A DNA stretch of 64,000 nt from Amoebophrya sp. A120 (Eukaryota > Protista > Dinoflagellata). This document shows positions 1 through 64,000 of the stretch, piece after piece. Positions within the stretch are counted from its first letter, which is position 1. Each line of letters begins with the position of its first letter. The notes under the pieces were generated by a model that was not told where the DNA came from, made no database searches, and saw nothing but the letters and a program-made list of their open reading frames with translations. The DNA lies in contig CAJINV010000005.1 in the NCBI GenBank assembly GCA_905178155.1, positions 5,458,690 through 5,522,689 on the forward strand, given 5' to 3'. Both the position numbers and the translations under genes were made by a program.

Positions 1-3000
1 TCCTCTTCGTTCGTCGAAACCACAAGACGGGAGAGTACGGAAAAAAACCACCAGGAGCACCAGACAACCTCAACCGCGCACGACACGAACGACGATTTCG
101 GCTGTGAGCACGGTGCCTGCGGTGATGAGGACTCTAGATACGCCAAGAGAAAACTGTTTGTTCACTGTAAAGTTTACAGTGAAAGAACCTGTAGTAATGC
201 AGAAAATGCATCGCTGAAGTGTTTGTCTTGCTGTGGACCCCCAGGATCAGGTAGACGAGGTCCCAGACCGAAGTGGTAGGCGCTTAGGGTGAACTATGTA
301 TGTAGGGCCCTTCCGTGCGGCCAATTTGTATGTCCCGCAACGGGGTTCGCCTATGTCGGTCATTTGTATGTGAGGCGATGGGTTACCCGGTCGGCAGAGC
401 CGATCCACAACGAACGAACGATACACATGCAAGACGAGTGATTTTTCGCGGCGTTTCCCCTTAAGATCCTCGCATGGCGAGTTTTCTTTGTAAAAATGTG
501 TAGCGAGCTTGTAATGCAAAACTTGCAATAAAATTCTATACAGTGAAACAGTTTTTTCTTACGATACTAGAGGCCCAGAGGCCACAGTCGACCTGCACTC
601 CGCCACGAAGCCCAGGATGCAGCCTGGAGGTCGGAAGAAAACTGCGGGGGGTCCTCCTATGGGAGTGTCAGGATCGAAATCGACAAAATCGAAAAACTTG
701 TAATGCATAAAATGCAGGGCACGCAAGGCCTGTGTTGGGGAGAAGGCAAATGAGACCGATAATTGCAAGCCTGTTTAGGGGAAGAAGACGCGTTGCCAGA
801 GAAGCATGACAGGAGCAGTGTTCTTTGCCCAAACAGCATGACAGACTGGATTTTGCAGCTCCCGAAATTTGTCATGCGCCACTTGGAAACTGAGGGCCCA
901 ACTGGTATCGATTTTATGCATCACAAATTTTTCGATGTTGTTGATTTCGATCCTGACACATCCATACCTCCCCGTGCAGATGAGGAGAATGGCGATGGAT
1001 GGTCGTGTACCATTTGTAAAAACGTCTCCACCTCTTCCCCAGAGTCAAGTAGACGGGAAATCTGCTAGACAAATCAGCATGCTTTGGCTGTTGCGCATGA
1101 CAAGTTCTTTGGGCGCGTAGTCGTGTGCTAGACGTCGCTTACGTTATTTCGCGCTAGTGCAGAAGCATCGCACATGCAGCATCTTACGCTGATTTGAGCA
1201 TCACAAATTCAGATTCCAAAAGAACGCGTACGAGTAGAATACTAAAACACTTCTACCACTACTCATGGGGCTTCGCATACGAAACATTTTGAGCATGCAG
1301 CTTTGCATGACAAGAACTCTGGGCACGACCACCTGGGGACATTTTTACACAGGATATCGTGTGACGACGACGACGACGACGATGGTGGAGAATCCGGACT
1401 GTGTATCCTGAGTAAAAGTGTCCCCATACCAGAGTCAAGATGGGAAATCTGCTAGACAATTCTCCAAGCTTTGGGAGTTTTGCATGACAAGTTTCCATCT
1501 GTAGTGTACTGCTGTTTAACAAGAGAAGCAGCATGAGAAAGCGAGCTTCTCATCCTGTTTACAGCATTACAAAGTCCAAAAAACGATTGGAAAGGCCTCT
1601 CATGGAGATGCGCATCACAAATCTTCCTCTCATTGCACATTTGCATGACAACTATGGGGTGGGGACGCTTTTACATACGATACTGTGCCCAGGCGGGTCC
1701 TCGTCCTCAACTCGCCCCGTCGAAGCGATGATGGCTCCGCCCGGTGGTCGTGAACAAGTTCTATCAAATGTAAAAATGTCTGGGTCTGGAACGATGCAAC
1801 TTGTGATGCGCATTTCACACCACACAAAAATCTGTCATGCATGCAAGCCAAAAGGTGCACATTTCCGGTCACCGAAAGAAGTGCTTTGTCATGCGGATGA
1901 CGCATTAGGAGACCTTCTCAAACAAAACCTGTCACGCTAGGGCGTGCATGGTAGACCTTCTGGGTCATGCCAAAGCTGCATCACATACCTCTGCATTTTT
2001 CCAGACCCAGACATTTTTACATTTGATAAGTTCAAGGAGGTGACGATCATGCTGGTGTTCTTACTCACCAGCGCGCGGCGCAGATGTCTTCCAACACGGG
2101 TCGTGGTCCTGCTGCGCGGGTGGTCACTGCGAATGCAAATGCGGGAGTAGGGGTGCAACAACTTGATTTCGACATTCCCGACCGAAATGGAGAGATCGTC
2201 GGCCACGCGACCATGGTCCCCGCTACCGGCGTCGTATCCGTGACGGCCACCCAGGGAAATACGGTGAGACAGTCTCCTATGGAACTGTCAAGATTGAAAT
2301 TGACAAAGTTGAAAAATTTGTGATGCATAAAACCGATCATACCAGTTGAGAGCCCCATTTCCAAGCGGTGCGTGACAAGTTTCTACGTCAGCGAAATCCA
2401 GTTTGTCTTGCTGTTTAGCGAAAGAAGGCATCCTTTGTCATGCTACTTTAGCAGCTCTATCTCAAACGACCCATTGCAGGCTCACAATCGGCCTCACTTG
2501 CAATCCCTGCAACGCAGTCACTTCGTGCCTTGCATTTTATGCATCTTCACAGATTATTTCAACTTTGTTAATTTCAATCCTGACACAACCATATCTCCGG
2601 GAGGACGGGCCGCAAACGGGCAGCAACTGCCCCCCGAAGTCTGGATCGAAACCAAGGATGGCGAATGGGTGTTTGTCAAAGCGCCGTACGTCTCTTACGA
2701 CCCGGTGACCGGGGAAGTACGAGTGCCCGACCCTACTGGTACAGCTGCAGCGACTGTGCCAACCTCTGCTCAGCAGCAGCTGTCCCGGGGAAGAAGAGGA
2801 CGACGAAATCTCGGGGGGAGACAAGATGAGCAAGAAGATCTATCCTGTGCAAAAGTATCGTACTAGTCGAAATTGCATTACAAATTTCCTCAGCATGAGA
2901 GATAAAATTTGTAATGCGGACTTACATTAAGGAAAAGAAAAAGATTTGTAATGCATGACTGCAATGCCTAGGACTACGAGTGCGATACTTTTGCACAGGA

Positions 3001-6000
3001 TGAGATCCCTTGGAAAACGATCCGCTGATGCAGCCCGATCCTGATTTGGATCTGCATGTTATCCTGAGTAAAAACGTACCCACACCAGAGTTGTAATGCA
3101 AATCTGCATGCTGAAAATGTTTCTCATGCGGAGCTCCATGAGAAGCATTTTCTAGTCGTGTTTTGCAATTTGTCATGCTCCAATCAGCATGGTATGCTAG
3201 ATCTGTGATGCTGCTGAGCTAGCTCAAACAGCACTACACTACGAATCCAAATTTGTCATACAAAACGGCCAAAGCTTGTGGATTTGTCTAGCCGATTCCC
3301 CATCTTGACTCTGGTGTGGGTACGTTTTTACTCAGGATACATGTTGGCGAGACGGGGAACTACAACAACTACCCCAATTATGGGCCGCCTCGTCCTCCCG
3401 CACCGCCCGCTTGGCAGCAGCAGCAGCAGCAGCAGCAGCGATACGGTTCTGTCGCTTATTCCAACCAGCACCTCGTGCTGGGCCAACCTGGCTTTCCCGC
3501 TGTTCTTGGTCCTGCTGTTGCAGGAGGAGCTCCGTGGGCGCCTGCTCCAGCTGCGCCGCAAGACCGAAACCGAGGGGGGTGGAACAACGACAAGAGCTGG
3601 TGGAAAGAGAACCACGGCAACCACGAGTGGAACGACGGCAACTGGGGGCGGAAAAACCACGGCGACGGGTGGAAGTACGACTACCGGGGGCGGAACAGCA
3701 AGTGGCGGCAGCCGCAGCAGCCACAGCAGCCGCCGCCGCAGCAGCAGCAGCAGCAGCTGTTGCGGCAGCAGCAGCAGGAGTTCCGGCGGGAGCAGCAGTT
3801 GTTGCAGCAGCAGCAGCAGCAGCAGCAGTTGTTGCGGCAGCCGCAGGAGTTGTGGCAGCAGCAGCAGCAGCAGCAGATGGAGCAGCAGCAGCAGGAGTTG
3901 TGGCAGCAGTTGCAGCAGTTGCAGGAGATGGTGCAGCATCAGCAGAAGGAGTTGTTGCAGCTGCGGCAGCAGCAGCCGCAGTGGCAGCAGCAGCAGCGGC
4001 AGCAGATGGAGCAGCAGTTGCAGCAGTTGCAGGAGATGTTGCAGCGGCAGCAGCAGGAGTTGTGGCAGCAGTGGCAGCAGCAGCCGCAGCAGCAGCCGCA
4101 GTGGCAGCAGCAGCAGCAGCAGATAGAGAAGCAGCAGCAGCAGTTGCAGCAGTTGCAGCAGTTGTTGCAGCGGCAGCAGCAGGAGTTGCGGCAGCAGTGG
4201 CAGCAGCGGGGTCCTCCTGCTCCTCAACAACGACCGCCAGATGACCTTCGTCCAGATGGCCATCCTCCTGCTCCTCGAACGCCGCCGGCCCCCGGCGTCC
4301 ACACGACCTACGAGTTGTCTTTCCCCCGTGAACTTCGCCCGGTCCACCCGGAAGAGGTTTTGGGTGAGGACTCTTTCCCCCCGCCGATATCCAGTGCAAA
4401 AGCATCTTCGCACTCCTGCTCGTCGTACTTCTAATCGCAGTTATGCATGACAGATCTATGACCACCTGAGGGAACAAGTAGTGGTCAGCATATAATAAAT
4501 TAACAAGCTCGACGTCCTGCGTTTCTTCCCTACGGAAAAATTTGTACTATTTTTGCGATTTCTACTATATACGATTACGATTATACTTTTGCAATGGATA
4601 GCCGATGTTGCCCGACAATGCAGACGACGCGGAGTTTATCCAGGAAAAAAACTGTGTAAGTGTAAGCTTCTTGGTGGAAGAGCATCGCAATTTTGCTCTG
4701 CACGACACAGAAAACCTCCTCCTGTCATGCGTAGCTAGTACGTGAAAACACGCACGAAAATTCAAATTGCCTCTGATGCATGTCCAGCATGACAAGTGTA
4801 ACAGTTTTGCATTTTCTGCAACGCAGAGTTACACTTACACAGTTTTTTTCTTCCATAGAGTTCGTCGGGGTGGTGTCCGTCGTGACGCAGGTGCTGGTTC
4901 TGACCCACGAGCTGCTGGAAAGCTACGAGGGGATTCGAAATTGGGATCCGCCACATCCTGGTATGTTGTCTCGAATTCAACAATTCATCGACGACAGTAC
5001 CTCCTCCACCTCCTGTCCGTATTTCAGCCAAGAGAATGCCCGGAAAGTGCGCAGCGGGCCCGCACAACCCAAACCGGAAGCCAAACCGGCCGCAAAACCG
5101 GGTGCAAAAGCCAGGAACCTGAGCAGCCTGTTGCTGTCTGGCCAGTTGATCTCGTCCCAGCTGTTTTTCATGAACGACTTGGACCAGGTCCGGGAGTGGC
5201 TGGTGGACTTCGACAAGTACATTCAGGAGGAAGTTTATCCTGAGAAAAAACTGTCTCAGTCTCAACTTGTAATGCGCAACTTCCTTGGGACAGTTTTTTG
5301 TCAACATGCTCGACATGCAAGAAAGAGAAAGTCGTCTTTGATCATATGTGTTTTCCGTTTTTGTGTTTGACGCATCACAGGTTTTCCGTGTCATGCTGAG
5401 CAAATTTGGGTTGCCGAGCCAGACAGTTTTTCTTGCGATAATGTTTTTATCGAGAAGATTGTTCTTGACGGACGAGAACAGCCAGCGAATGACCCTGGTG
5501 CCTTCTGGTCGCACAACGCGCTTCACAAGAGGATTTGCGAATATGCAGCTCACGATCCCCCTCATGGTGATGACTATTTCGAGGGGGGGGATATCACGTT
5601 GGGCCGCCCAGTTGTTGATGGAACGCCGCGAGCGCCGTGGTCGTGCTTTATCAAGCCTGAGGCCACGGCAGGGCCGAGCCGTGCGCCCGACGAGAAGCAA
5701 AAACGTGTAAAGCTGGAAAGGCACGCTGCGCTCTGCGGCGCGCAAAAACATTTGATCGAGCCGCTGCAGAAATTTCTCGGGTTGGGGCAAGCAGGTGTCA
5801 ATGGGGTGCCGTCGAGAGCACATGTGCCGTCGAGAGAAGAGCGAAGAGGAGACGACTTTGGGACGCAGTTCCACTTGCCCGAATGGGTTCTTCAACTACT
5901 GCAAGAAGGGAAGCAGAAGCTCGACGGAGCGAAACTGTGCAAAAGAGCTTACGTCAAGGACCCCCAGCATCCGACCAGCGACACCGCTGAGCCCATGTGC

Positions 6001-9000
6001 TCCGACGTTCTTCATACGCGGTCGTGCGAGATTTTGCGCGTAGACTTCTGTGAAAGAGTTGAGGATTCGGGTGGTGGCGGTGTTAGCGGACAATTGGGGG
6101 TGAATCCGAGGAAGTTTTCCGAACTGGGCTCGTCGCACCCAAACAACGGGAAACCTTGCTGCGAAAGGAGCGCAGCCGGCATCAACGTGTTCGAGCAGGG
6201 TTACTTCGAACAGATATCAAATGCAAATACGTCTGGGTCTGGAAGAATGCGACTTGTGATGCTGCATTTGGATTCCAAAAAAATCTGTATTGCATGAGCA
6301 GCAAAGGGAATGCGATCTCTGCTCCGTGGAGTGGGCATTTGTCATGCTGAGTAGGCATCTGCAAGATGCCCTAAAAAAATCTGTGATGCTACGGCATGCA
6401 TTACAGACATCATGGCCCATGCAAAATGTGCATGACAAGCTCCGACTCTTCCAGAGCCAGACTTTTTTGCGTTTGATAACAGAATCAAAAACCCTTACGC
6501 AAAATGCTTGGCGCGTCGAATGAGCACACGACGCGACTTCTCTCCGACTCGAACAAAGATTTTGGCGCAACGCACGAGTTATGGATTGCAAACGTGTCTT
6601 CATCTGCGTGGATCTCTGGAAACAACAAGGAAAACTACCTGTGAAGTAGTAGATCCTCTGTAAATAACCGGTTGGGGATGATTTTTGCAATGCTCGAAGG
6701 AGCCAACATGGCTGCTTTCTCGCATGACAAATTGAAAGGAACAAGCTAGAGCCCACCTATTGCTATTACAAGTTTGGCTTTATTTCTACTTCCAGATCCA
6801 GACATATTTGCAGTGCATACGAGTTGGCGCGGGAGTTGGTTCTCACGGAATTGCAGCTCGTCGAAACGTATGCATTGCAAAAGTATCGCACTCGTAGTAA
6901 TTGCAGTAGTTATGCTGCATTACAAATCTACATCCCAAGGTAAAACAGCATGACAAATTCCATTTGTCATGCTGAGGTAATTTGTAATGCAATCAAGTAC
7001 TGCTAGTACGACGTGCACGATGCTTTTGCAGTTCATAAAACTTATGCGTTGCAAAAGTTGTATCGCACAACTAAGACTAACATTTTAGCAGCACCAGAGA
7101 AGATCTGCGCATCACAAATTTGGTCAGCATGAACAATAGAATTTTCGTATGCTGGTTCTTAGCATACGAAGATTATAGGTCTGGTTTTTAGCGTACGAGA
7201 AAGAAAATCATACATGATTTTTACCATTACAGTTTGTTAGGAGTATGATACTTTTTTTGTACAGGATAAAGATCTGAACGCGGTGAGCGAGTTGGGACTT
7301 CGTGACGAAGCCGACCTCTTACGAGAATTCGGCCGAGAATTCGGCCTTCCGTATGGGAGTGTCAGGATTGAAATCGACAAATTTGAAACAATTTGCAATG
7401 CATAAAACGGATACCAGTTGGCCCCTAGTTTTCAAGTGGCGCATGACAAATTTGAGTAGAACCGAAATCCAGTCTGTCATGCTGTCTGGGTAAGGAAGGC
7501 GCCTTTTGTGATGCTACTTTAACAGCTCTATTTCTACAACCCCTCAACAGGCTTACAATCTGCCTGCCTTGCCTACTCTACAAGACAGGCATTTTGTGGG
7601 TTGCGTTTTATGCGTCGCCAACTATTTCAACTTTGACGAGTTCAATTATCCTGACGCTTCCATATTCCGGAACCAAGCCCGCGGCACACATACCAAAAGG
7701 TCCAGCAGATTTTGGCTCCGGAGCGGCAGCGGCTGCAGCACCTGCGGTGGCTGGTAGATTTGAATGACGTCGAGTTGTTGCGGAGGCAGAGCCCTATTCA
7801 ACCTCAACGGGGAGGTCCTCCGGTGCCTAATGCGGCAAGTAGATCACCTCCAACGCGAACGCCGCTCGACCAACTGAAGACTGCGATCATCGAGTTCCAG
7901 TTCAAACCAATCGTCGAGTTGCACACCTTATGAATCGCAAAAAGCAGATCGTCATCGTAAGTACTACTAATAGTATATTCATCATAGTGCGAAAATCATA
8001 TGCGCCGGCGCTGCAAATCTTTTTCCTAAGGTAAATCCGCACGGTTGCAGCAAAGTCCATTTCTCATGCTGATGAAGTTTGTAAGTAAATGCAATAGCAA
8101 TTGATGTTACTAGTAGTAGTACTAGTAGATACGATTACGATACTTTTGCAATGCATACACGTTTGCTCGCATCTACCTGGATCATGAACAACAGCCGGAC
8201 GCCGCCCAGCCGCCGGGTTCAACACCTTCGTCCCCTGGTGCTAGTGCAGCAACAGCAACAGCTGCATGGCAAATGTCTGAGGACATGAAAGTACAGGCGG
8301 AAAAAATAACCGAGGCCGTGAAAGGGGATCGCGCGTTTTGCCCCTTGTTGCCAGGGCGAAGGGAAGCTGACTACATGCCGAACCTGGTCCACTTCGAGAA
8401 GTGGAAGGTTTTCTACGCCGATTCTGTGCCTCGGGGTGTTTTGTCGCAGGTTCTTGAACGCATTCCCGAAGAGCAGAGGGAGACGCTTCGTAACCAGGTT
8501 AACGAGGCACGCAACAATCCCGATGAAAACCGTGATTTGATGTTCGGTCAACTTGACGCGTATGAGGGCCGCAGAAAAGCGCTGCGTGACGCGGAAACAA
8601 GTATCGTGACTGGTCCGCTTGAGTTTTTGCGAACCGCGATGTGCGAGTATTCCTATGGAGCGAAACGCGCCTTGCACCAGTACGACGCCAAACTTGTTGC
8701 TTTTGCGAACAAGCGTCATGGTCGGCATCCTGATTTGCCGCGGATCCAAAGCAGAACGGACCATTTTCTGGAGGCGAGTGGTACCCCCGTTTCCCGAGCT
8801 GGGGCTGCACCAGCAGGTGCAGCACCGCAAGCGGCTCCTGCAGGGGGATCTCGTGGAGGAGGAGGAGGAGGAAGTCGATCCCCCCAACAAGCACAATCGA
8901 GACCACAAGCGGCGCGTCGTTCCTCTTCTGCGCTGGAGCTCCCGCAGCAGAGCAATTCCCAAAACAGCATCTCGTCCGTATGGGAAGCTTCTCAAATGTT

Positions 9001-12000
9001 ACATTCTCAACTGTCACATGAGTTTGTGATGCAAAAATGACAAAAGTGAAAGGGGTGACCTTGCACGTCTCGCATGACCACAGATTTGCGTCAGAGATTC
9101 TCAGACTGTTTGGCTGTTCTAGAATTTGTCATGCGAAGCAGCTTGAAGATCGCGTCGATTCTGCTTGTAGTTTTGCATGACAAAAAATCATACAGCAGTT
9201 CAAGATGAAACATTTGAGAACCCCATAGTCCGCAGACGAGGACCACGGGTCTCCTACTACCTTCACTTCCATGCTGGAAACCATGACGAACAAAGAACTC
9301 TCGGACCTACTACAATGAAAAATGCCCCCACGACGACGACCCCGAAATTTGAAAAAGTGTCTCACGCATGAGATTTTCAAATGAACAAGAACTTTTTGTC
9401 TATGCATGAAAGGACTCCCGCGAGTCTTTCTGGTGCAGAACCGAGATGCCTGCGTAAGGTACCTTCTGGACCATAACAGACCCGGCTCCTGTTGTTGGGC
9501 TCCTTTGCAGCACAGATTTGCGCTATTCATCAACAGGGAGATGACTTTGTGACGCTGATACAAGCAAGGCGGGGAATTTTTCCATTGGAAAGGTTTGCAC
9601 ACACAAACGCTGCCAAGTTCTCGGGTGGGGGCATTTTTCATCGTAATACGCCGCTGATGTTGAGGCCGCCCGGGTGGTCTTTGATGAAGCTGAAGCTGGT
9701 GAAGTTGAGGCCGCCCACGTGGCCTCTGGTGAAGCTGAAGGTGCTGGTGAAGTTGAGGCCCGCGTGGCCTCTGGTGAAGCTGAAGGTGCTGAAGATATCC
9801 TGAGCAAAAACGTCGTCCCCACCTCAGACTCAAGATGAGAAATCTGCTGGAAGATGAGAATAAATTTTTGACCAGTTCGTGGTCAACAGGGTCGTGAAGA
9901 CGTTGTGTCGAAGATGACAGGTTCTTTGGCCTCGTAGTCGTCTAAATGCTAATGCTGTTTAGATAGTTCAGAAGCGTCTTCACAGATCTAGATCTACTAC
10001 GTAAAGCATATTGAAAAGTAATCCTTTTATGCTGATAATTCGAGCAAGACAAATGCAAATCCCCAAAGTACTAGAGCTGCATCAGACATAAATGCTCCTC
10101 ATAAAGCTCGTCCGCATGAGAAATCAATTTTCTGCATGACGAGAACTCTGGGCTCGACGTTTTTACTGAGGATAGTTCTTATCGGCGACGAGGGCGACGA
10201 CGACGAAGATATCAAAAAGAAAAAGCCCCCCTCCCCATATCGGAAACGAAATTTGTGATGCTGTATATGAGTACACAAGAAATCGACTTGTATTGCTAGA
10301 AGGCCAAGAGACGCAGTTGTGGCCTGAATTGCAGGCAATTTTTCATGCTGTTTCCCACTTCCAGTTGCCTCGTGTCATGCTGGAGATGCAATACTTCCCT
10401 ACGCTAGGTAGCACTACAGTCCGCATCTACTTTTGCCTTCTAGCATCACAAAGCTGATTTGCGACCACAAATCTGCATCACAAATGTCCATTTTGATATA
10501 ATGGGGGGGATTTTTGTTCTTGATAGACGACGAGAGAAGTTCTTTGGCCGTCACCATCGGAGAGGAGGGAAGCACCAGCACGGTCTATCAAATACAAATA
10601 TCGAAGATCTGGGCCTAGATGAAGATTTTTGCAGGGAGGTTTGTTGATGTCATGCGCAGACCGTCGCTTTCCATGCCGCCCATGACTGAAGTCTGAAATG
10701 CTGCAGGGCTTTGTTCTAGCGTGACAGATTAAGTACAACGTGAGTAGTTCTTTCTCTCATGCCTGTTCTGCTTCTGCATGACGTGCATGACCACGAGAAA
10801 AACCCTGCTTTATCACCTTGAGACCAAAATTTGGCAAGAACTCTTGGAGGCAACCATGCAACGTTAGATTTTTGTGTGACCACCACCGACCCCCATGATT
10901 AAGCACATCAATCAATCAAACCAGGAGCATTATGCATCATTTTAATATTTTAGACCCAGACACAATTCTTGCAATGCATACGGGCCTGCTGGAAACCGAA
11001 GATCCCGCGACGAACAAAATTGCTCCGGCTGAAGATGCAGCGGTAGTATCCTGTGCAAAAGTAATATGATCGTACTCGTAGTAATTGCAGTCATGCATTA
11101 CAAATCTCGTTCCCAAGGCAAATAAGCATGACAAATTCCAGTTGTCGCGCTGAGCAAATTTGTAATGCAATTATTATGACTAGTACGGTAGTACTTTTGC
11201 AATTCACATGCCGCGGCTGCAGCGCCCACGACAACTACGCGGAAGAGAAACCTTATGGAACTGTCAGGACTGAAATTGACAAAGTTGAAATAATTTGTAA
11301 TGCAGAAAATGCATGACGCGAGGTACGTGTGTTGCAGAGCAGGCAAGTGAGGCCGATTGTAAGCCTGTTTGGGGTTAGGGCTCGAGATGCTAAGGTAGCG
11401 TGAGAGAATCAGTCTTCTTTGCCTAAACAGCACGACAAACTGGATTTTAGGACCGCCAAAATTTGTCATGCGCTACTTGGAAACTGGGTTCCAACTGGCA
11501 TCCATTTTATGCATGACAAATTATTTCAACTTTGTCAATTTCAAACCTGACGCTTCCATAAACCTGAAATTCCTCGAGCGCGTGGCGCCGCAAGAAAAGA
11601 AGACGGCGGAGAAGGATATCCCAAGGAAAAACGTCCTCAACTACTTCAAGTTTATTGGGTTGTCGAGCATGACAAGTTCTAGTACGTGCTATTGACTTTC
11701 GGCTCGTAGTGGTCTAATAATCCTCTTGCTTCAGCTAGTAGTCGTGCAATCGCAGTAAAAAGTGACTACCTTAACCTTACTCTGATTGTTCTAGCATGAC
11801 AAAGAACTACTCCACCTCCCAGACTGGATTTTTAGAAATAAATGGCTTTCATGCAGCTGGGACTGCGCATCAGAAACGTTTTAATTATGCTTGCGGGTTT
11901 ACAACGTGACGAGAACCCTGGGGAGGTGGGGACATTTTTACTCAGGATTCCAGCGGAAGCGGAAGGACAAGAAAACGAGGGGAGCCAGAGCCAGGAGCAG

Positions 12001-24245: not shown

Positions 24246-24350
24246 AACAGTTAGCAACTTCGGCGGTAAGCATTATTTACGTATCTCTACTAAGTAACAA
24301 TTGTCAATCTTTGCGGCGTGTGCCGGTTAGGGTTTATGATTATGCTCTTG
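24185..24350 (+). repeat. Dispersed duplication (other copy ~29953-30118)
   Basis: Shared CCAGGAGCTGGAGCAGGTAC...GGGTTTATGATTATGCTCTTGT. Confidence 0.9.
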
Positions 24351-51400: not shown

Positions 51401-54400
51401 CAAAGAAGCCGACGAGGAACCAGCTAGAGAGCGAAATTTATGGCGTTCTCAACTGTAACATTCTCAACCGTTACATGAATTTGTCATGCACAATGGCCAC
51501 AAGCCTCCACTTGATCAAGGTGCTCCTTGGCATGACAAATTTTCGAAGGGCTAAGCAGCATGATAATCTGTGGCAAAAAAAAATCTGTGATGCGAAAGCT
51601 GCAATGTTACCGCTTTCGGTTTTGCTGTTCTTGCATTACAAGTTTATGTAACAGTTGAGAATGTAACGTTTGCGAACGCCATAAAATTTTGAAGGGAAAT
51701 TTAACAGTCGGTCAGCTCCGGGAACTCGTGGCGAAAGAGCGCGTATCAAATGCAAATATGTCTGGGTGGTCTGGAAGATTGCAACTTGTCATGCTAAATC
51801 TGAATCAGGCAAAAAACTGTGTTGCGTGATTGCCAAAAGCTGTGCACTTTTGACCTAATCGAGAGGCAGTTTCTCACGCAGAATAGGCATTAGAAAGGTC
51901 TCGCAGAATCTGTCATGCTATGTCCTACATACCAGACCTCATGGGTCACGGAAAACCTGCATGACAAGTCTTGCAATCTTCCAGAGGACCCAGACATATT
52001 TGCAATCAATAGCGCGCGCAAAAGCAACAGGACGACGAAATCCAAGCTCTGCAGGGGGAGCTGTGTCTTCGCTACAAGAGCCTTGCTAACGGCCCGATTG
52101 AAGCTGGCTATGAGGAGATGTTCACCGAGGAAGAGATCCAAGCTGTGCCTTTCGATATGGCGCTCTCAACTGTTACATTCTCAACTGTTCCATGAATTTG
52201 CTATGCAAGAATGGCAAAAGTGAAAGGAGGGGGCTTGCGCGTCTTGCATGACAGGTTTGGCACAGATGGAGACGCTGTTTAGCCCTTCGAGAACTTGTCA
52301 TGCGAAGCAGCTTGATCTTCGTCTGGTGGCTCATGGTCATTTTGCATCACAAATCATGCAACAGTTGAGAGTGTAACTTTTGAAAGCGCCATATTCGAGC
52401 AGATCGACTTACGGCGCAAAAACGGCAAGCTTTCCTCCGCATTGTCGCAGGCACGAGGACCTGTTGGTGGGGAAAAAAGAACTTCTTGCCCCGGCAAGAA
52501 AACGACGACCACAGGAGGTGGTCATGATCTTCATGCGCAAGTAGAGCAGCATCTTCAAGAGCAGGGCCGCGCCGCAGATGTTGCTGCTCGTCCGGAGGGC
52601 CACGACGAGGACTTAGGCTTTGCTGACAGCAACTCAGACGATTCATTCGACTTCTCCGCCTGGGAAACGCACGAGGTTCGAAGTCGGTTGAAACACTTGC
52701 TGGCAAAACGAGAGCCTGACGAGGCCTATATTTTTACGGATGAAGAGGTAGAAGTAGAACATCAACAAGCACAAGCACGAAACCCCGCCCAGGGGACTCG
52801 AACACAAGAAGGCCCCCCAGAACAACCTCAAGCTGCTGCATCTGCTCGGGTGGTTTCTACCACGACGAAAACGGCTAACCACGAGGAAATTGCGGAAGTC
52901 CTGCGCACGACGCGGAAACTCACTCCCTGGGACTTTGTCAACGAAGCCGTTCAGGCTTTTCTCGCTGAGGATGTGGTACAGGACTTTTTGCAGGCCGCCG
53001 CAGAGTGGAAACCCCTGCTGGCTGGCATGCGGACTACAACGGGCCATGGTGGAGGCGGTTTTTCATTCAAGCGTGAAGAGCGTGAGCACAACAAGAGGAA
53101 GGGGACGAGCATCAACATGAAAATAAATTTAAATTCATCAGGACAAAAGGAAAAGCCAACGCCAACTGATTACCAAGCGGAGATAGACTTCCTGCAGGAG
53201 ACATTTGACACGGAAAAGGCCAGTATTGCGGACAGTAACTTTGACTACGCGCTGCTTGCCATGCAGGAAGAGGAGCAGGTGATTCTTTCCCAACTGAAGC
53301 GCATCCGGCAGCGGAGCGGGGGTTTGCTGAACGATATGCAGTGCAAAAGTAATATCGTACTCCTCGTACTACAAATGCATTACAAATTTTCTCAGCATGA
53401 GAGAAAAAAATTGTAATGCGGATTCAGCATCAGCTTCAGAAAAAAAATTGTAATGTATGATTGCAATTACTGCGAGTACGATACTTTAACTTTTGCACAG
53501 GATAAACGAAAAGAAGTACGGACTGATGATCAACGAAGTGCAGGGTTTATTGCACTTTCGGAACAAACAGGCACTTGCACAAGAAGAAGCGCGATATGTT
53601 GATGACGAGCTGCGCATTGACAATGATACGAACGAACTGGAGGAAGCGTTACTGAGGGAACTGTCTGCGAAACTGCCCTCGTCTATGAACATATGAAATG
53701 CAAAAGCATCGTACTAGTAGAAATCGCATGACAAATTCCCTCAGCATGAAAAATGAAATTTGTAATGCGGATGGAGGTTACGAAAGAGATTTGTAATGCA
53801 TGACTTGGATTACTACGAGTGCGATTCTTTTGCACAGGATAGAGCAAGATCTTTAACGACTTGCTTTTTGAGGAGGTTGTGATGTCTGGCGCCACGCAAG
53901 CATATGCATTGCAAATATGTCTGGGTCTGGAATAAATTTCTCATGCAAGGAAGGGAATATTAGTGACCACACCGCAATGCGCTCCCCAGCATGACAAGTT
54001 TTTCCGTGCTGGCTCAGAGCTGCGTGCTCCGCATGAGAAGCCGCGTCTTTGCATGACAGACAAGAGGACCTATTGGCGGGCACGCAATAGTACAGAGTTC
54101 AGAGTCATGCCAGACTAGCATGACATCCCCCAGACCCAGACATATTTGCAGTTCATAAAGCTCATCTGTCTGCAAATGCTGGGATCGGCACGACGACGAA
54201 CAACACGACGGGCGGCAAGGATCATAGTACCGTGGGAAGTGGAAATGGCCCGGTAGCTGCAGGAGGAGGAGGTTATGGCACCACGGCGACGGATCCTATT
54301 GGCCAGGAATTACCCCCGAAAATTGTCGGTTATATTAGCGACCTGGATCATGCTATCGCAAGAAAAAACTGTGTCACTGTGAACTTGTGATGCAGAAAAT

Positions 54401-57400
54401 GGAACGCAGAACTATTTGTCTTGCTACACCTGCAAGACATTGGATTTTCAAGCGTGTTTTCCCTTGGGAAACGTGCATGGCAAATTTTCTGTGCCATGTG
54501 TATACAAACTTGTCACGCGGTTCTTGCAAAATCATCACAGTGAAACAGTTTTTTCGTGGGATACATGCGAAAGCCGTCGAGAAGATGCAGCAGAGTGGAC
54601 ATCAAAGCGGGGCTTCCTCGCATGGGAACGGTCCTGCTTTGTTCCAGGTCAAAACTGCAACTACTGCGTCCTCGCAAGGATCAGCATCTTCCCCCTCGTC
54701 GGCCCCGTCCCAGCATCAGATGAACAGCAACGCGCCGTATAGCACGACGCCACTGGTGCACCCAGGGTTCCACCTCCGCAATATCCTGCGCACCAACCCG
54801 CGAGACACGGTCCGGTACGAGGCCTGGTTGTATTGGCGCATGTGCAAGGGGAAGCTACAGGCCCCGCTGAGCAGCAAGAAGTTTCAGGACCTTGATCTGG
54901 ACAAATTGCTGGCGGGGCACGAAGGAGCTCCTGGTGGTGCAGCAAGAAGTACTATCACGGGGGGCGGGAAGGGCCTGGGCCGCACGGTCGCGGGGAAAAA
55001 TGCCAGATCTTCATGCAGCCCAGAGGCGCTGACGAAAAACCTTCTCTACCGCGCCCAGCGTGAGGAATGGGAGGAAGCTGTGGCATTGGCGGACATTCAG
55101 GATGACATCGTTCCACCCCCAATTGTTTGGAGGCGGAGCGATACTAGAAAAAATTCGGCTCCGGCAGCTGACATCAAGCAAGGCAAAACTAGTCCAGAGG
55201 ATCAACAACACCAACAGACGAAGAAAAAAGAAGGAGATCATCGGGCCGCTGGTGCACAACAAGCAGGTACTGCTGGATCATCATCTAAGCGAGGAGGTTC
55301 TTTTGCTGTTACCGACACGATCACGAACCAGGGAAATGGAGCTGCACCTAACACGACGACCAATGCAGCAGCAGCAACTCCAGCATCTTCTACTACTTCC
55401 AATACTAGCGCTTTCCAGAGTTTCTTTGAGGGCATCCGCAATTATTCCGTGAAAATTAACCATCCCCATCCACTTTGTGCATGACAAACAGAGGACTTTA
55501 TGCATGTTTTGCATGACAAACTGGATGGGGATGGTTGATTTTCAGGGGATAGCAATGCGTTTAGCTCGGGCGCAGGATTGTCTGGAAGTACGAAGGCGCA
55601 GCGGGGCGGGCGAGAAAAAGCCACGAGCACGACGGCAGATCGAGACGATCAAGATAAAAAGATGCAGGTGGACGATGCTCATGATGCTGCTAGCACAGAA
55701 GCAGCGGCAGGGTCGTCGCATTTCGAGGACCATGGTGAGGGCGGAGAGGTGAACGAGGACGATGAAGACGGCGAAATTATGAACGATGCCCATGCACCAG
55801 CTGATCTCGCAAAAGTTCTAGACAAGCCTCTCACTTACGGCGAGATCCTGGCTTCTTGGATGTCAGCGATGGGCCTGAAATATCCTGTGCAAAAGTATCG
55901 TACTCGTAGTAATCGCAGTCATGCAATACAAATCTCCTTCTTGACCTGAATCCGCATTACAAATTGCATTTTCCATGCTGACGGAATTTGTCATGCGATT
56001 ACTATACATTATATTCATGCGAAAAAAGAGGTAGACAGAGGGTCCCAGAGAGGTGGCCGAGAGGTAAAAAAGAGGTCGACAGAGGTAGAAAAGAGGTCGA
56101 CAGAGGTGGAGAGGTGGCGCGGGACCCCGTTCGAGAGGGTCCGCGAGAGGGTGCGCGAATAAGGCCCGCAGTAAGCGCCCACCCTTAGGCGCCGCCTAAG
56201 TGGCGCAGAGGGTGCAGAGAGGTCAAAAAGAGGGTGCGCGAGAGGTCGACAGAGGTGGAGAGAGGTGTTGCGAATAAGGGGCGACCTCTCGCGGACCCTC
56301 TTGGCCACCTCTCGGCCACCTCTCGGCCACCTCTGTCGACCTCTGCCCGCGAGTATAGCCGGATTATTAGCGGGGACCCCCAAAAGAGGCCAAAAAGAGG
56401 GTCTGCGAGAGGTCTGCGAGAGGGTAAAAGCACAAAGAAGCGGGCGCGAATCCGCATGGTAGTGCCCATATTTGGCATTGCAGGCCATTCGCGGACTTGT
56501 TTTGTTCGGCGCCTTTCCGTGCCGCCCTCTCGCGCACCCTCTCGCGCACCCTCTCGCGTCACCCTCTCGCGCCACCCTCTCGCGCACCCTCTCGCGCCAC
56601 CCTCTCGCGCCACCCTCTCGCGCACCCTCTCGCGCCACCCTCTCGCGCCACCCTCTCGCGCCACCCTCCCGCGCCACCCTCTTCCACCATGCAACTTCTG
56701 TTCGCCCCCGGTGTTCTTTGCAGCTGCTCCCTGCGCAGAGCGCCCACAGGCGCGGGAAGCGCGCAAGTGGTCCTGCGGCTTGGCGCGGCGCAAATCGGCG
56801 GCAGGGATCCAGTGTGTTTCGTTGTGCCTACTAGGCCCGTGGGGTTGTGGTCCGAGCGGCAAACAGCCTTGCCCCGGCCCAACAGCCTTGCGCTCCGGCG
56901 GCAGCCGGAGCATGGCTGGTTTCTACTAGTGCGATACTTTTGCAATTGATATGAAAAACGCAGTCCGGGACTCTCTCCGGGGTCCGAACGCGAAGACGGT
57001 CGCGGTCCACAACTCCGATGTAGGCGTGCCTGGCACGCCCACGCAGGTCGCGGTTTTGAATCAGAACAAAGTGCTCGAGTCGGTGCAGCAGTCGGTGGAT
57101 ACCAAAGACCGGAAAGTGCTGCACGCATTTTTGGAATTCCATGAGGCAAGCCGCGAAATTCAGTCCGACGAAGTAGTGGAGTTCGGCGACAAGGATGTTC
57201 TTGTGTCGGCGAACGCGGAAGAAATGCGTGCGTTTTTCACCAGGGTGAAAAAGTCGATGAAAAGCAAAGGCTATGTCTTACAAAAAAAAGTGTGACAGTC
57301 ACGACGCCTTTTATTTTGTCGGAGCTTTAGCTAGCAGCAGCAGCACAGATTATAATATAGTTCGAATTTCAAAAATGTGCTCTACCTGTTGACAAGGAAT

Positions 57401-58391: not shown

Positions 58392-58705
58392 TAACATTGA
58401 CATTGACATACTTTTTCAAGTAATTTTCATCTACTTAGACTGGCGTCTATTTTGGAATAGAAACTTGTGGTCCTCCTGTTGATGTACTTGATGTTTTGAG
58501 ACGGCAAAATCCATAGTGCCAAGTTTCTGTCATGTTTCGTTTGATTTGGAAAAATATAGCAATCGATGAAATATGCGCGTTAATAGCGTTTCTTGAAAAC
58601 AACAAATGATACCGACCACGGCGCATATTTTGTATTTTCAAGAAGAATTTCAATTCACACACAAAACAATAAAACAGCACCACGCGCAACAAGGGAGAGC
58701 AGAAG

Positions 58706-61700
58706 ATGTCAGTGGGTGTGAAGAATCCAGTTGAACTGTTTGGACTGCAAGAAACAGCAGCACCTCCAGACGAGCAGAGCCAGAATGCATCAGCAGATCA
58801 TGATCATGTAGATGGAGCTCTTGGTGCAGCAGCAGCAGCTGCGCAGCGACACGGACAGCAGCAAGGTGAGCCGCCTTCTCAACGCCTGAACGACGTGAGC
58901 AAAAAGCTCTTCCTCAACAGTGACCAGCAGGGCTCCAAAATGAATTTCGAAACCACACCGGACGAGCTGCAAAAGCTGCAGGAGGGCCGGAAATCTTTCC
59001 TCATGCATTCTTACGCGCGGGTCATGCGCGCGTTTTGGGACGATTTGGGACTGAATGCCGCGGACAGAGTACCGTCGTGAGAAAAAAATGTTTCACTGTC
59101 AGGAGTTTGCAAGTTTTGCATTCTTTTTACAAGTTTGCTACACGAGGGCATGTTGACTTTGAGAAAGAAAACTTGCCACGCGTAAGTACTTTGTCACGGA
59201 ATACTTAAAACACGTTGATAAACCCAATGCCTTGCATGTGTAGCAAGAAGACAAATGTGTCTGTGTAGTTGCATAATTCTTTGCTGCGTCACAGGTTTAT
59301 TACAGTGAAACAGTTTTTTCTTGCGATACCGAGCGCCTATGGTTCATGCGGAGATGTGGTTCAGGGAGCTGAATTTGCTCAGAACTGACGTTTTGAAATA
59401 TCTAGGACTGAGCGCAGGCATCGGTCTCAAAGCGGCCGCGTCTCCAACTACAAATCAAGGAGGCAACGCTGGTACCGGAAGCACCACTATCCCGAATGCG
59501 GGCTCTAGCGGTTCATCTGGAACTGATCCAACTAGAAGCGGAGCTTCAGCGTCCGTGCCGCCGCAGCCTACAAGTGTTGTACAAACGCCGTCTGCCCCGT
59601 CTGTGGTAAATGCGAAGCCGAAGCCGCCGCCAGCGGGGTTCGAAGGAGCAATGGAGCAGCCTCCTGGTTCGTTCGCGGCACAGCTAACTGCAACGACCAG
59701 CAAGGCCAAGGCGAAAGCGGGTGGGAAAAATGCCGCGAGGACTGGTGCTCCTGTAGAGGACAAAAAACAAGCAGGTACTAAGCATCCGCCCCTGATGAAA
59801 GCAACGCCAAAGCTAATCCCTCCGAGGGTAAAAAACAGCCAGCAAAAACAAGATTCGGAGCAGGCAGCCCCTGCTGGCAGCAGCACGCCGGCGAAAGGCA
59901 CTAGTACCCCAAAGGCGGGCGGGGCTCCTACAGGAGCTGCAGCAGCACCAACTTCTACACCAGCTCCGCAACTTCAACTGCCGCGGGAAGCGGCGAAGTT
60001 GCTCACCTCGATGATTTCGAAAGAGCAGTTTGAGAAAATCGGCATGGCGGATCTGATATCAAATGCAAAAATGTCTGGGTCTGGAGACTTGTGGTGCTGG
60101 GTGACGTATCATGGGAAGGCCACAAGTGCTGGCTCAGCATGACAAGTTTCTGAGCTTCTAGGTGTTGCCTACTCTGCATGACAGACTGCGTCTCTGCATG
60201 ACAGAAAGTTGGGCTCTTGGGTAACGTGCATGACAGATTTAAGAGTCATGCCAGACAAGCACGACAAACATGCACTCTTCTAGACCCAGACACTTTTGCA
60301 TTTCATATCGGAAAAAAGAGTTTGTGATACAAAGGTTGAAGTTTTTGAAGCAAGTGGATGAGTACAGAGGTCAGCTGACGATTATGCAAGGAAAAAACTG
60401 TGTAAGTGTATCTTTGTCTTGCAGACGTTGCAATTATACAGTTACACTTGTCATGCTGGATATGCATCAGAGGCTATTTATTTCCTGCTACGTGTTTTCG
60501 TGTACTAGCTACGCATGGCAGGTTTTCTCTGTCATGCAAAACAAATCTGTGATGCTGTTCCTGCAAAAAAGTTACACGTACACACTTTTTTCTTGGATAA
60601 CGATGCGGAAGGAAGAGAAAAAAATTATAACCAGTGCAGATACAACTGCAAAGGCGAAAGGAAAGGCAACAGCTGGCGTGATTCCAAGTCCAACCAGCAC
60701 GGCCGGCAATACTACAAGTGGAGCGCCGTCCACTTCAACATCTGCAAGAAATACCCGTCCCTTCCTGACCGCGTTTCAGTATCCTGAGTAAAAACGTACC
60801 CACACCAGAGTCAGGATGGGGATTTTGCAACACAAGCCTAGGAGTTTTGTGAGTCACGCATGACAAGTTGCACTCTGCAGTGTAGTGCAGATTAGCAAGT
60901 GCAGCCGCGTCACAGATTCATCTGCTCATCCTGTTCACAGCATCACAAATTCCAAAACACGATTGGAAATGGCTCTCATGCGGATGCGCATTACAAGTCT
61001 TCCTGTCTTTGCAAATCTGCATTACAACTCTGGCGTGCTGGGTACGTTTCTACTCAGGATATTCAGCTGCCGGACCTCACGCGGGAAGAACAGGTTCTTG
61101 ACGAGAAGCGAAGCCAGGAGGTGCTGGAGCATTTTTTCTTTGGATATCCACAGTAAATTTCCCGTACACGTACAGATGCGGTCTCTGCATGACAAAACTT
61201 GGCTTCGATCCTAGTTTAGCATGACAAGTTATTTTACGCTCCAAATTGGTGAAATTTGTGATGCATTTTGTACATGTTGTGCGGGAAATTTGTGTTGCAT
61301 ATTGGAAAAATGGACAACGGGGTCTACGTGTGGTACGATAATGACGGCGGGAACAACATTTTCAAACCGGTGCTGAAAAAACTCATTCGGGGCGGGAAGG
61401 TGGATGAACAGGCGAGCAGTAGTGCTCCGCCTGCTCCTGTTGTTCCTGCAGTGTCTTCACATGGTAGTGCAAGAACTGGTGACGTAGAGATGGTGCAAAC
61501 GGCAACGTCGACCTCCGCGGCCTCTAGTGCGGCCACCGGAGCAGGTGGCGCAGCAGCAGCGCCGCTGCCTGCTATGCCAGCAAGTAGAACATCAGCTGCG
61601 CTTCGAGGTGGTGGTGGAGCAGGAGACGATGGAGCTCCTTTTTTTGTCCCGAACAACACAAAACTCATCGACTCGCTCGGCCTAGAACAGCCCCGGAAGC

Positions 61701-62904
61701 AGCTTTCTCATCTGGACCACACTAACAGCGGAAATACCCTCGTCGCGCCCTTGGCGGCCGTGGCGGCGCAACAGGAACAACAACGGCAGCGGTTATTAGA
61801 ACGAGGAGAGCACCTACAAGGGCACTTTCAGTTTGCTCAGGCTTCTCCTGAGCAGCGGCCGCCAATGGCGACCACAGGAGATGCAGCAAGTGCAGGTGGC
61901 GGGGCGCCACCAGGAACATCCGCAGCTTCACCCACTTCTAGCGGGCCACCTACATCGTCGTCCGCAAGAATTACCAGCATTGGTGGTAACTTTTCGTTTC
62001 TGTCGTCTTCCCGCGCCGGAAAAAATAGTACTGGAAACATCTTATCAGAGGAAAAAAGTGTTACAGTTACGCATTTGTTAGAGTGTCTGCATCACAAGTC
62101 TTGTCTGTGTGGCAGAGAAAACTTGTAATGCAAAGTTCATAAGGCTAAGGGAAAATACGAGGCGCGCAAGCATTTCCTGCATGACAAAGGTTGTCTGTCT
62201 TGCTCTTGCGGTTCCTGCAACACAATGTGTGTGACACGACTTTTTTCTTGCGATACAGTTCTAACATTTCCTACTCCGAGCACCAGCAGCCTGGAGTGAC
62301 GAAAACAGTGTTTCAGTTTGGCGGGAACACTTCTCGCAACCCGACCCAAGCAGCGGTTTCATCTGATGAACAAGGTGTTTCGATTTCTGATACGGAAACA
62401 AGGGACATACAAGGCAAGGGGAAAGGTGGCGGAGCGTATGCTCCGGCCGCCGCCGCCACTGCGGCTTCTAGTGGAGCTTCCTCAGATAAAAAGATGATGC
62501 CAACACTGGTTCTACCGCCGCCTGTGGTAGTCGATATTGAAGATGCGGAGAGAACAACTACTCCTGTCCTTCGTCATCAAGACCACGCCGCTCCTGGTGC
62601 TACAAGTAGAACACCAGCACATGATGTTGACCATGCCGAAATCGCGGTTCCCGAAGATGAAGGTGACGATAATACTTCCGCAGCTTCAACGCAAGACGCA
62701 GATGGGGTCGCTGGAGGACAAGAAAGTCATGTTGAAACTCGTCCTCTAGAGCAAGAAAATGTTGAAGACAAAGAACAGGTGGACATTTATGATGTCTACC
62801 GCCACCGCCTACTATTCCTGCGAGACATTGCGACGCAGCGGGGCGATATGACCCGGGAAACACCCGGATCTGAAAATTGGCAGCGGAAAGTGGCACATGT
62901 ATGA
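58706..62904 (+). CDS. Multi-exon Ala/Pro/Thr-rich hypothetical protein with six introners (possibly the 3' part of the previous gene)
   Basis: Exon ORFs 58706-59069, 59329-60056, 60600-60779, 61302-62042 and 62256-62904, bounded by introners. Confidence 0.65.
59070..59328. mobile_element. Introner family A
   Basis: TIR AGAAAAAA.TGTTTCACTGT / ACAGTGAAACAGTTTTTTCTTGCGATA; DR CAGAG/CCGAG. Confidence 0.82.
60057..60307. mobile_element. Introner family E (inverted close relative of 38783 and 18235)
   Basis: TIR AAATGCAAAA.TGTCTGGGTCT; DR TCTGA/TCGGA. Confidence 0.9.
60383..60599. mobile_element. Introner family F
   Basis: TIR AAAAAA.TGTGTA.GTGTA; DR ACGAT. Confidence 0.9.
60780..61061. mobile_element. 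Introner family D (inverted close relative of 25384)
   Basis: TIR TATCCTGAGTA.AAACGTACCCA; DR TTCAG. Confidence 0.92.
61145..61301. mobile_element. Introner family J
   Basis: TIR AAATTTCCCG / CGGGAAATTT; DR TTGGA. Confidence 0.9.
62043..62255. mobile_element. Introner, A-like
   Basis: TATCAGAGGAAAAAAGT / ACTTTTTTCTTGCGATA; DR CATCT/CAGTT. Confidence 0.75.
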
Positions 62905-63689: not shown

Positions 63690-64000
63690 TATGAACTGCA
63701 AAAGTATCGTACTCGTATAAATGCATGACGTGGCCTAGGTACGCACATACGACTCGGTACGCCAAATCGTATGTGGGGCGTTACAATTTTCGCGCTTTTT
63801 TCATCGAGAAAACCCGCCAAAAAGCAGCACCGAGCCCGGTGCGGTTTGTAACGTATGGCAGCACCGAGCCCGCCAAAGTATGTCTTTTTGCCCACCTACA
63901 AAATTCGTATGGTAGCGGCGCGCCTTCACAATACATTTTGGCGCACCGAGGCGGCGCGCAAAAACTTCGCTGGGAAGCGCCCGCCTTTGAAACATTATGC
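63690..64000. mobile_element. Family C introner left end followed by unrelated sequence (runs off the window)
   Basis: TATGAACTGCAAAAGTATCGTACTCGTATAAATGCATGAC, then sequence unlike the C body. Confidence 0.65.

Follow-up and report, generated by a model that had tools for sequence, protein, structure and literature searches.

Wherever the borders can be read, the inverted-repeat elements that interrupt genes in the window (the whole 64-kb stretch of DNA analysed here) are removed as introns of the form N-TAT…ATA-NNNN, with one base cut before the element and four after it, and a matching direct repeat (DR) is dispensable for this removal. The elements themselves have already been published as introners of Amoebophrya sp. 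A120; what is new, in the literature searched, is the register, which was earlier published as variable or unknown. Below, x is the number of bases cut left of TAT and y the number cut right of ATA.

We counted 88 TAT…ATA inverted-repeat elements, together covering 25,690 bp, and a further fragment with a single end, close to the roughly 86 proposed in a first-pass annotation of the sequence. A strict scan of the window, requiring a perfect 5-bp DR as well as a terminal inverted repeat (TIR), finds 38 TAT..ATA pairs, and a relaxed scan finds 54 candidates, 50 of them non-overlapping, compared to 0–3 in five block shuffles; curation gave 85 elements, to which three degenerate ones exposed by the annotated protein P0137 were added. 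The TAT and ATA ends described in the annotation are present in 82/88 and 81/88 elements, respectively, while the rest deviate (e.g. TAC, ATG), with TAC accounting for five of the six deviant 5′ ends. Its 5-bp DR is indeed the sole length enriched, though it is perfect in only 50 elements, with one mismatch in 17, two in 8 and at least three in 13. Its TIR lengths of 15–35 bp were too narrow, as the observed repeats span about 13 to 60 bp. Clustering at a strict threshold gives 10 multi-copy families and 22 singletons, and since many of the singletons align best to the multi-copy families, the earlier figure of about 12 is fair. The families have little in common beyond their end motifs, the shortest elements are 109 bp long, and either orientation of one family serves as an intron. 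One internal motif, GCATNACAA, has 161 exact matches inside elements and 2 outside; because it is equally conserved at the two ends (26 vs 27 of 65), it is probably a transposase-binding site, not a branch signal.

We compared the window to 173 related loci, among which none of its exons recurs and in which 386 unique elements were called. At 341 end pairs called blind to the flanks, a perfect 5-mer repeat is present in 271, while 3-, 4- and 6- to 9-mers match in at most six; a 6-bp flank match occurs in 0/85 window elements and 0/341 of these pairs. The DR behaves in sequence as a 5-bp target-site duplication, as had been suggested, though no empty site was encountered. Two of the loci (L046 and L049) carry bacterial-type genes, GerA and DctP, and look like chance pattern matches; they were kept in the input. 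The metagenome scan covered 10 of 64 parts, and no viral contig matched the window.

Taking out each element with 5 bp leaves stop-free reading frames of 1660 (26 elements), 2137 (18), 940 (6) and 657 (15) residues, in agreement with the earlier claim that removal of the element and one DR restores the host frames. Taking out each element with 2 or 8 bp instead likewise keeps most frames open, so the value of 5 rests on the transcript data below. One host gene corresponds to P0137, which matches the window exons at about 100% and contains 19 element-type and 6 canonical GT-AG introns side by side; a frame at 26412, without a near-length homologue, turned out to be one of its exons. Judged by this match and by the published end motif, the elements are introner elements of A120, a class the annotation had already suspected, and the host is either A120 itself or a strain very near to it. 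No Pfam family was found in two scanned exon frames of gene A. The features are:

1..12335, plus strand: host gene A, 5′ end beyond the window, 1660-aa frame without its 26 elements
3414-4207, plus: polyQ exon of gene A
139-566 (starts TAC), 658-966, 1008-1356 (TAC), 1404-1682, plus: gene A elements with no RNA joint and a perfect 5-bp DR
1762-2028, 2278-2593, 2841-3002 (ends ATG), plus: the same
3060-3339, 4388-4600, 4637-4857, plus: the same
5236..5440, plus: element, DR AAGTT/ATGTT, 210 nt absent from transcript, x<=3
6215..6478, plus: element, perfect DR, 269 nt absent from transcript
6580..6819, plus: element, perfect DR, 245 nt absent from transcript
6869-7037 and 7043-7268, plus: abutting pair with the middle 5-mer in common, 405 nt skipped as one, exactly x=1, y=4
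7352..7664, plus: element, perfect DR, 318 nt absent from transcript
7929..8157, plus: element, DR CACCT/CACGT, skipped in transcript, x<=1
8979..9227, plus: element, perfect DR, 254 nt absent from transcript
9308..9648, plus: element starting TAC, DR GGACC/CGCCG, skipped in transcript, x=1-2
9796..10174, plus: element, DR GAAGA/GTTCT (4/5 mismatched), no slide, exactly x=1, y=4, intron 9795-10178
10210..10525, plus: element, DR GAAGA/GACGA, skipped in transcript, x=0-2
10586..10980, plus: element, DR CGGTC/CGGGC, skipped in transcript, x=0-1
11047..11208, plus: element ending ACA, DR GGTAG/TGCCG, skipped in transcript, x=0-1
11254..11560, plus: element, perfect DR, 312 nt absent from transcript
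11617..11949, plus: element ending ATT, DR AAGGA/CCAGC, skipped in transcript, x=1-2
12010..12279, plus: element, perfect DR, 275 nt absent from transcript
16451..16758: element, perfect DR, upstream of gene B
16907..34178, plus: host gene B, the annotated A120 protein P0137 (1458 aa)
24202-24661, 24905-26466, 27307-29185, plus: canonical GT-AG introns of gene B
29969-30386, 31014-32242, 32659-33902, plus: canonical GT-AG introns of gene B
17018-17168, 17185-17507, 17573-17925, 17992-18161, 18235-18486, plus: gene B elements
18555-18877, 19024-19181, 19230-19564 (TAG), 19592-20038 (GT-AG at x=1), plus: gene B elements
20188-20484 (DR 5/5 mismatched, x=1 only), 20574-20875 (ends AGA), plus: gene B elements
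21075-21419, 21451-21779, 21814-22116, 22495-22983, plus: gene B elements
23475-24041 (TAC..ATG), 29279-29585 (x=1-2), 29723-29874, plus: gene B elements
30546-30961, plus: gene B element, DR 5/5 mismatched, x=1, y=4 only
25384-25666, 27887-28061, plus: elements within canonical introns of gene B
35415-35701, 35797-36084, 36208-36485, 36593-36854: elements in one short plus-strand frame
36928-38031: long element over an N gap
38426-38748, 38783-39034, 39067-39365, 40393-40634, 40705-40966, 41235-41395, 42149-42482: elements
45391..57295, plus: host gene C, 2137-aa stop-free frame without its 18 elements, no spliced transcript detected
47081-47189, 47543-47872, 48382-48637, 48685-48849, 49090-50005, 50349-50619, plus: gene C elements
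50652-50796, 50817-50994, 51080-51394, 51439-51683, 51744-52011, 52156-52393, plus: gene C elements
53335-53504, 53692-53841, 53903-54157, 54354-54563, 55443-55551, 55881-56951, plus: gene C elements
57653-57904 (ends ATC), 57953-58102, plus: elements in a short frame
58673..62904, plus: host gene D, 940-aa frame without its 6 elements
59070-59328 (TAC), 60057-60307, 60383-60599, 60780-61061, 61145-61301, 62043-62255, plus: gene D elements
63192-63455, 63489-63633: elements
63690-63729: single-ended fragment

Transcript-like contigs skip the elements at all 15 joints of the region 5150–12420, each by the element length plus 5, and none of the 15 gives GT-AG at x=1, which bears out the proposal that the borders of removal are not GT-AG and follow the TIR ends. 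These contigs number one per run, from three runs of one sample, and cover one gene; their RNA origin is presumed. The register x=1 is the sole one common to all 15 joints and is exact at two, one of them with a DR mismatched at 4/5 positions. The skipped form has a depth of 30–58, compared to 3–5 for unspliced pieces. P0137, an annotation whose underlying data may overlap with the transcript runs, accommodates x=1 at each of the 19 element joints in gene B, 10 of which are informative, and permits only x=1 at 20188 and 30546, where both DRs are mismatched at 5/5 positions. With another A120 protein, P0145, one joint in the related loci is narrowed to x=0–2. Copies with diverged DRs permit one register only, and the intron borders stand at 1/4 wherever they can be read. 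A codon score in related loci places x=1 above x=4 in 6/11 and 8/17 cases and does not discriminate between the registers, and a search of annotated proteins for further minus-strand joints gave 0/6 and then 1/10 useful, with none via a representative search. Between 49850 and 64000 no splice joints were obtained, because run X3 has no coverage of exons there and repeats dominate the joint tables; raw RNA runs over the window genes gave element reads from other loci only (X8), none (X9) and one read (X10).

The ends of these introns carry a polar signal. We pooled 174 related-locus copies of assigned orientation (78 from plus-strand and 96 from minus-strand genes, with 212 copies left out of the polarity counts) with 61 of 83 window elements that could be oriented, leaving out the abutting pair. 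The U at intron position +2 varies in 0/235 copies, compared to 12/235 for its 3′ mirror base; in the related loci alone the figures are 0/174 and 11/174 (5 plus, 6 minus; p=0.001). No such asymmetry is seen at element position 2 (2 vs 3 of 235). The canonical donors of gene B are GTACGA, GTACTT, GTATTT, GTACCA, GTAAGT and GTACTT, and host-like bases stand at +2, +3 and +4 in 235, 233 and 229 of the 235 copies, so that from +2 to +4 the intron resembles the GTAY donors of the host. Near the other end, the A at −7 is invariant (asymmetry 0 vs 6, p=0.03), and the bases preceding it do not fit the U2 branch consensus.

The other border positions, +1 and the last two bases, are free. Position +1 is about at background (A68 G67 T54 C46), as is AG, and the 3′ terminal dinucleotide is unconstrained. 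Introns with mismatched DRs show no drift to canonical ends (G at +1 in 6 vs 7 of 21; AG in 3 vs 6 of 41), and the first exon base shows no preference (A19 T19 G15 C12). GT/GC..AG ends occur in 1/65 window ORF elements and 7/174 in related loci; the earlier statement that no sliding of the junction yields GT..AG is correct for most elements, though 3/65 can be slid to GT/GC-AG and 1/65 has GT-AG at the true register. Target composition would by itself produce part of the phase-0 excess (90/174 related-locus copies and 26/61 window copies). Background levels of G at +1 and of AG are hard to reconcile with a standard spliceosome.

The explanation we lean towards, by a modest margin over even odds, is that the elements are non-autonomous inverted-repeat transposons removed by a divergent, U1-less host spliceosome that uses their ends as a ruler. 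With TAT at both ends, either orientation would offer N-U-A-U, mimicking the host donors at +2 to +4; the repeat would bring the two ends together and place the 3′ cut four nucleotides beyond ATA, with no need for an AG. The message would be restored to the base and any exonic site tolerated, which would explain the density of elements. The branch nucleotide might, speculatively, be the invariant A at −7. Farhat 2021 (PMC7789003) lists U2, U4, U5, U6 and 83/89 spliceosomal proteins as found in A120, with U1 not among them. Put more generally, we give an even chance to a second splicing code, N|N-UAU…A-UA-NNNN|N, set wholly by the transposon ends and read by a spliceosome that lacks U1 or by a novel enzyme; it would need only U(+2), with the branch perhaps at the A of ATA and the 3′ cut measured without AG. 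If so, insertion at any site and in either orientation would make a ready-made scarless intron.

A possible but less probable explanation is a spliceosome-independent RNA endonuclease and ligase, as proposed for Euglena, that reads the terminal hairpin or the TAT/AAA boxes with spacers of 1 and 4 nt and would release a full-length circle. The pairing of the ends next to unequal spacers of fixed length has a counterpart in the Euglena code N3CDG..CHG N5-6|R (PMC12501133), the terminal dinucleotides are free apart from U(+2), and the U1 missing from the A120 inventory is consistent with such an enzyme. At least 10 of the first 20 nucleotides are predicted to pair with the far end in 60/63 elements, and the predicted fold of 9796 has z=−3.5 with TAT and ATA paired. 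However, three of the 16 transcript-confirmed elements (5236, 7043 and 10586) are exactly skipped despite 0–3 predicted terminal pairs, and 20188 folded with 20-nt flanks gives no terminal stem. Nor is selection on stem pairing detectable: G-U is not clearly preferred to A-C (35:33, 88:85, 81:64), and element positions 4–7 are non-Watson-Crick in 23–40 of 65 copies. With these observations and the polar, invariant U(+2), the earlier suggestion that removal is guided by the terminal stem rather than by consensus signals is not supported as it stands, and the match of U(+2) and the TAC variants to host spliceosomal donors argues against the enzyme.

Excision from DNA in some life stage, with the element-less contigs representing DNA, is very improbable. 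TA ends and inverted repeats do resemble the internal eliminated sequences (IESs) of ciliates, the RNA nature of runs X3–X5 is presumed, and joints in run X1, where summed depth over the elements is very high, are dominated by repeats, so that rare element-less alleles could be present. However, the exon bins of genes C and D have no coverage in X3, whereas in X1 every bin is covered, a pattern that RNA would give and DNA would not; low-depth unspliced exon–element pieces are also found in X4 and X5; the asymmetry of the ends tracks transcript direction on both strands; and X1 contigs, possibly the window's own source, pass from exon to element without differences. Self-splicing ribozymes with a bulged A at −7, as in group II, are no more credible: U(+2) together with the invariant A at −7 resembles group IIA geometry, but the small size of the elements and the dissimilarity of their families beyond the ends speak against this, as does the lack of any Rfam match in the window. 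Least probable of all is reverse-transcriptase template switching or skipping guided by homology between the DRs, for although hairpins between short direct repeats are its classic substrate, 9796 is skipped exactly with diverged repeats, one register holds throughout, and the skipped form is dominant and gives kilobase reading frames.

The elements are likely mobilised by a Ginger-like system, in which an integrase-type DDE transposase would insert them and produce the 5-bp duplication. The first-pass annotation considered the mobiliser unresolved, which is partly outdated: a table entry in Gozashti 2025 (PMC12130899) lists A120 family 38 as ‘Ginger’, with ‘5-bp TSD, TA/TA Termini’ and LTR-integrase-like ORFs, though its main text describes the same family as lacking Ginger homology and the expected Ginger termini. 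Among the dataset rows listed, automated calls give A120 families target-site duplications (TSDs) of between 2 and 6 bp (PMC12130899). Ginger2 duplicates 4–5 bp, and IS3EU/GingerRoot elements end in TA..TA with a usually 6-bp TSD (PMC10045372). The window elements share the TA..TA termini of Ginger-like and IS3EU/GingerRoot elements and the 5-bp TSD of family 38 and Ginger2, and neither they nor those of the related loci show the strict 6-bp TSD of IS3EU/GingerRoot. The search for a transposase was negative in 20 window frames, where Pfam gave no family at all, and in 140 of 297 long frames of the related loci.

The question matters as a removal route for tens of thousands of non-GT-AG introns without a detectable U1, for which the register and U(+2) yield point predictions. 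The 1/4 register can guide a branch search, base changes in reporters and the re-annotation of A120 junctions, and it would explain how a transposon can saturate exons at little cost.

The closest known system is that of the A120 introners, described as many families of RNA-supported non-canonical introns (Farhat 2021, PMC7789003) with an inverted-repeat motif of TAT, 7 variable positions and AAA, and a DR of 3–5 nt, shown as 5 bp in Fig. S19 (PMC7789003). End matrices show the same motif in the window elements, which also have the DR, the repeated families, the absence from transcripts and the non-GT-AG ends. The legend of Fig. S23 gives a border range of 1–5 nt only (PMC7789003), whereas the window elements show a single 1/4 register, no need for a matching DR, and a polar signal. 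A similar picture emerges for the nonconventional introns of Euglena, which have a CAG/CTG motif, spacers of 3 and 5–6 nt and a purine at the exon start (PMC12501133), and for which excised circles are reported (PMC11282704). They are like the window introns in non-GT-AG ends, paired ends, fixed asymmetric spacers and TSD-like repeats, and the fixed register is suggestive of convergence with the spacer rules recently worked out for them. However, the lineage is unrelated, and the window has TAT/ATA with spacers of 1 and 4 nt in place of the CDG/CHG motif and no preference at the exon start. The MITE-derived introns of Fritillaria borealis, which prefer AG-AC/AG-AT ends, retain a conserved U1 and are ascribed to a modified U2 spliceosome (PMC11282704, PMC13326754), are likewise transposon introns with TIRs, TSDs and non-GT-AG borders, but those of the window have free ends in a host without detected U1. 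Compared to U2-type introns, the elements as a class do without GT/GC..AG ends, but share with them U(+2) and the host-like bases at +3 and +4.

When the window is searched for inverted-end pairs of the form TAT..ATA that are flanked by a 5-mer, 38 strict and 54 relaxed candidates emerge, compared with 0–3 in shuffled sequence. The curated set of 85, with three more exposed by an annotated protein, comes to 88 elements (25,690 bp) plus one fragment, in line with the roughly 86 copies proposed in the first-pass annotation; they form 10 multi-copy clusters and singletons, and both orientations of a family can be found inside a single gene. The 5-bp flanking repeat and the restoration of host frames, both claimed there, hold equally: 5 bp is the only repeat length found (perfect in 50/88, at least three mismatches in 13/88), and deleting each element with 5 bp gives ORFs of 1660, 2137, 940 and 657 aa across 26, 18, 6 and 15 elements, respectively.

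1..12335, forward strand: gene A
16907..34178, forward strand: gene B
45391..57295, forward strand: gene C
58673..62904, forward strand: gene D
36928-38031: long element with a ~1-kb cargo
55881-56951, in the opposite orientation to 36928-38031: long element sharing that cargo (86% identical)

The shared cargo is GC-rich, contains short tandem repeats and may be a nested mobile unit; L024:505-1608, on one of the metagenome contigs bearing the same kind of elements (related loci), carries it too, in an element with TIRs of another family. A 916-bp element (49090-50005), purine-rich and then G/C-run inside, is unrelated to the other long ones and gave no Pfam match. Insertion is not confined to exons: in gene B, two elements with perfect repeats (25384-25666, 27887-28061) sit within canonical GT-AG introns. 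Some copies multiplied by segmental duplication rather than transposition, as exon-plus-intron blocks are duplicated (28952-29591 and 30157-30967; 24179-24366 and 29946-30130; also 35404-36156). Long glutamine-rich repeats occur at 3414-4207 in gene A and 34161-34363 at the end of gene B.

The system itself is already known, as the first-pass annotation had supposed. One exon of the window matches an Amoebophrya sp. A120 protein of 1458 aa, which maps over 16907-34178 at ~100%, and the portions of Farhat et al. 2021 (PMC7789003) drawn on here describe A120 introner elements with direct repeats of 3–5 nt and an inverted-repeat motif in which seven variable bases separate TAT from AAA. Those portions leave the splice position “variable” or “unknown”, and report U1 snRNA, minor-spliceosome snRNAs and a transposase as not found in A120. 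A fixed register, a dispensable repeat and a polar U(+2) are absent from the literature passages searched, though the figures and further supplementary data of Gozashti 2025 and Farhat 2021 could bear on novelty. For this known oddity, the mechanism of removal can now be put to exact tests.

In three sequencing runs of one sample, whose RNA nature is presumed from a software guess, a single contig per run (3557, 4769 and 4833 nt; depth 30–58) skips all 15 joints in 5150-12420, corresponding to 16 elements, and every skip equals element length plus 5. Two of the three runs additionally contain unspliced exon–element pieces (depth 3–5). In one run the exon bins of genes C and D have zero depth, whereas another run, X1, covers everything there; X1 contigs, which may be the window's own source, pass from exon into element without differences. 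Taken together, the contigs behave like spliced RNA rather than DNA that lacks the elements. The expected removal from transcripts is seen at TIR-tied sites for one gene in presumed RNA. About 200 raw RNA reads of run X8 at 51768-51829 carry part of a related element, indicating that one copy from another locus is retained in an abundant transcript.

A joint whose two 5-mers differ cannot slide, and for nine such joints the sole common solution is a cut one base left of TAT and four right of ATA (register 1/4). No other register fits at 6869/7043, nor at 9796, where the 5-mers differ at 4/5 bases. For the 10 informative joints of gene B, the annotated A120 protein, which may share data with the presumed-RNA runs, yields the same register, and at 20188 and 30546, where all five bases differ, it admits no other. 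In one related locus, a joint of a minus-strand gene admits 0–2 bases on the left. The duplication is thus an insertion scar, as first proposed, rather than a removal guide, and template switching as the source of the skips is hard to reconcile with exact skipping despite differing 5-mers. At this register introns end NT..NN, with GT-AG in 1/65 window and 7/174 related copies, bearing out the non-GT-AG ends claimed earlier. At 6869-7268 two elements abut over one common 5-mer (three copies in all); register 1/4 leaves a zero-length exon between them, so removal there is recursive or one-step. With register 1/4, phase 0 is in excess (90/174 related, 26/61 window), partly as expected from target composition.

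A pattern scan covering 10/64 parts of the metagenome contigs found at least 173 related loci, 171 from one assembly whose glyoxalase is 93–100% identical to the A120 protein; 271/341 flank-blind end pairs have a perfect 5-mer. Flanking codon usage oriented 174/386 of their elements. Intron +2, the first T of the element, is the same in all 174, while its 3′-end mirror varies in 11 (both strands; p=0.001). When 61 window copies are added to the pool, U(+2) is kept in 235/235 (mirror 223/235) and A(-7) in 235/235 (mirror 229/235; p=0.03); the pool has no end asymmetry at position 2. Such polarity goes beyond what a symmetric transposase site alone predicts. Canonical donors of gene B (n=6) read GTAC, GTAT or GTAA and deviant 5′ element ends in the window read TAC in 5/6, so the element appears to supply positions +2 to +4 of a host-like donor, leaving +1 free. 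N-TATCCT, a common end variant, resembles the U12-type donor consensus.

On balance we lean towards removal by a divergent spliceosome that would read N-UAY as donor and use the element end as the reference point for measuring the 3′ cut; branching at A(-7) would be speculation. The main rival, by analogy a Euglena-like nuclease–ligase working with fixed spacers, seems less likely, and minor rivals and mixed routes take what confidence remains. There is no drift towards G(+1) or AG, which speaks against an ordinary spliceosome.

The first-pass view that the terminal stem, rather than a consensus, guides removal is not supported in that form, given the invariant U(+2). End pairing is predicted in 60/63 elements, equally for sense and antisense strands, with no clear preference for G-U over A-C (35:33, 88:85, 81:64) and frequent mismatches at stem positions 4–7; three transcript-confirmed elements have only 0–3 predicted terminal pairs, and the predicted fold is good for 9796, not for 20188. 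The stem may still help removal. The motif GCATNACAA has 161 exact matches inside elements and 2 outside; many copies carry it in mirrored positions, ~31–45 nt from each end. It is kept equally at both ends, suggesting a putative transposase-binding site.

The mobiliser had been called unresolved, and no transposase was found in 20 window frames or in 140 of 297 long frames of related loci; however, the part of Gozashti 2025 (PMC12130899) used here already lists A120 family 38 as a Ginger with 5-bp TSD, TA/TA termini and LTR-integrase-like ORFs, with no homology to known Gingers. Insertion would therefore likely be by an integrase-type DDE transposase. The window elements share TA..TA ends with IS3EU/GingerRoot, whose TSD, in the portion of PMC10045372 used, is usually 6 bp compared with 5 bp here.
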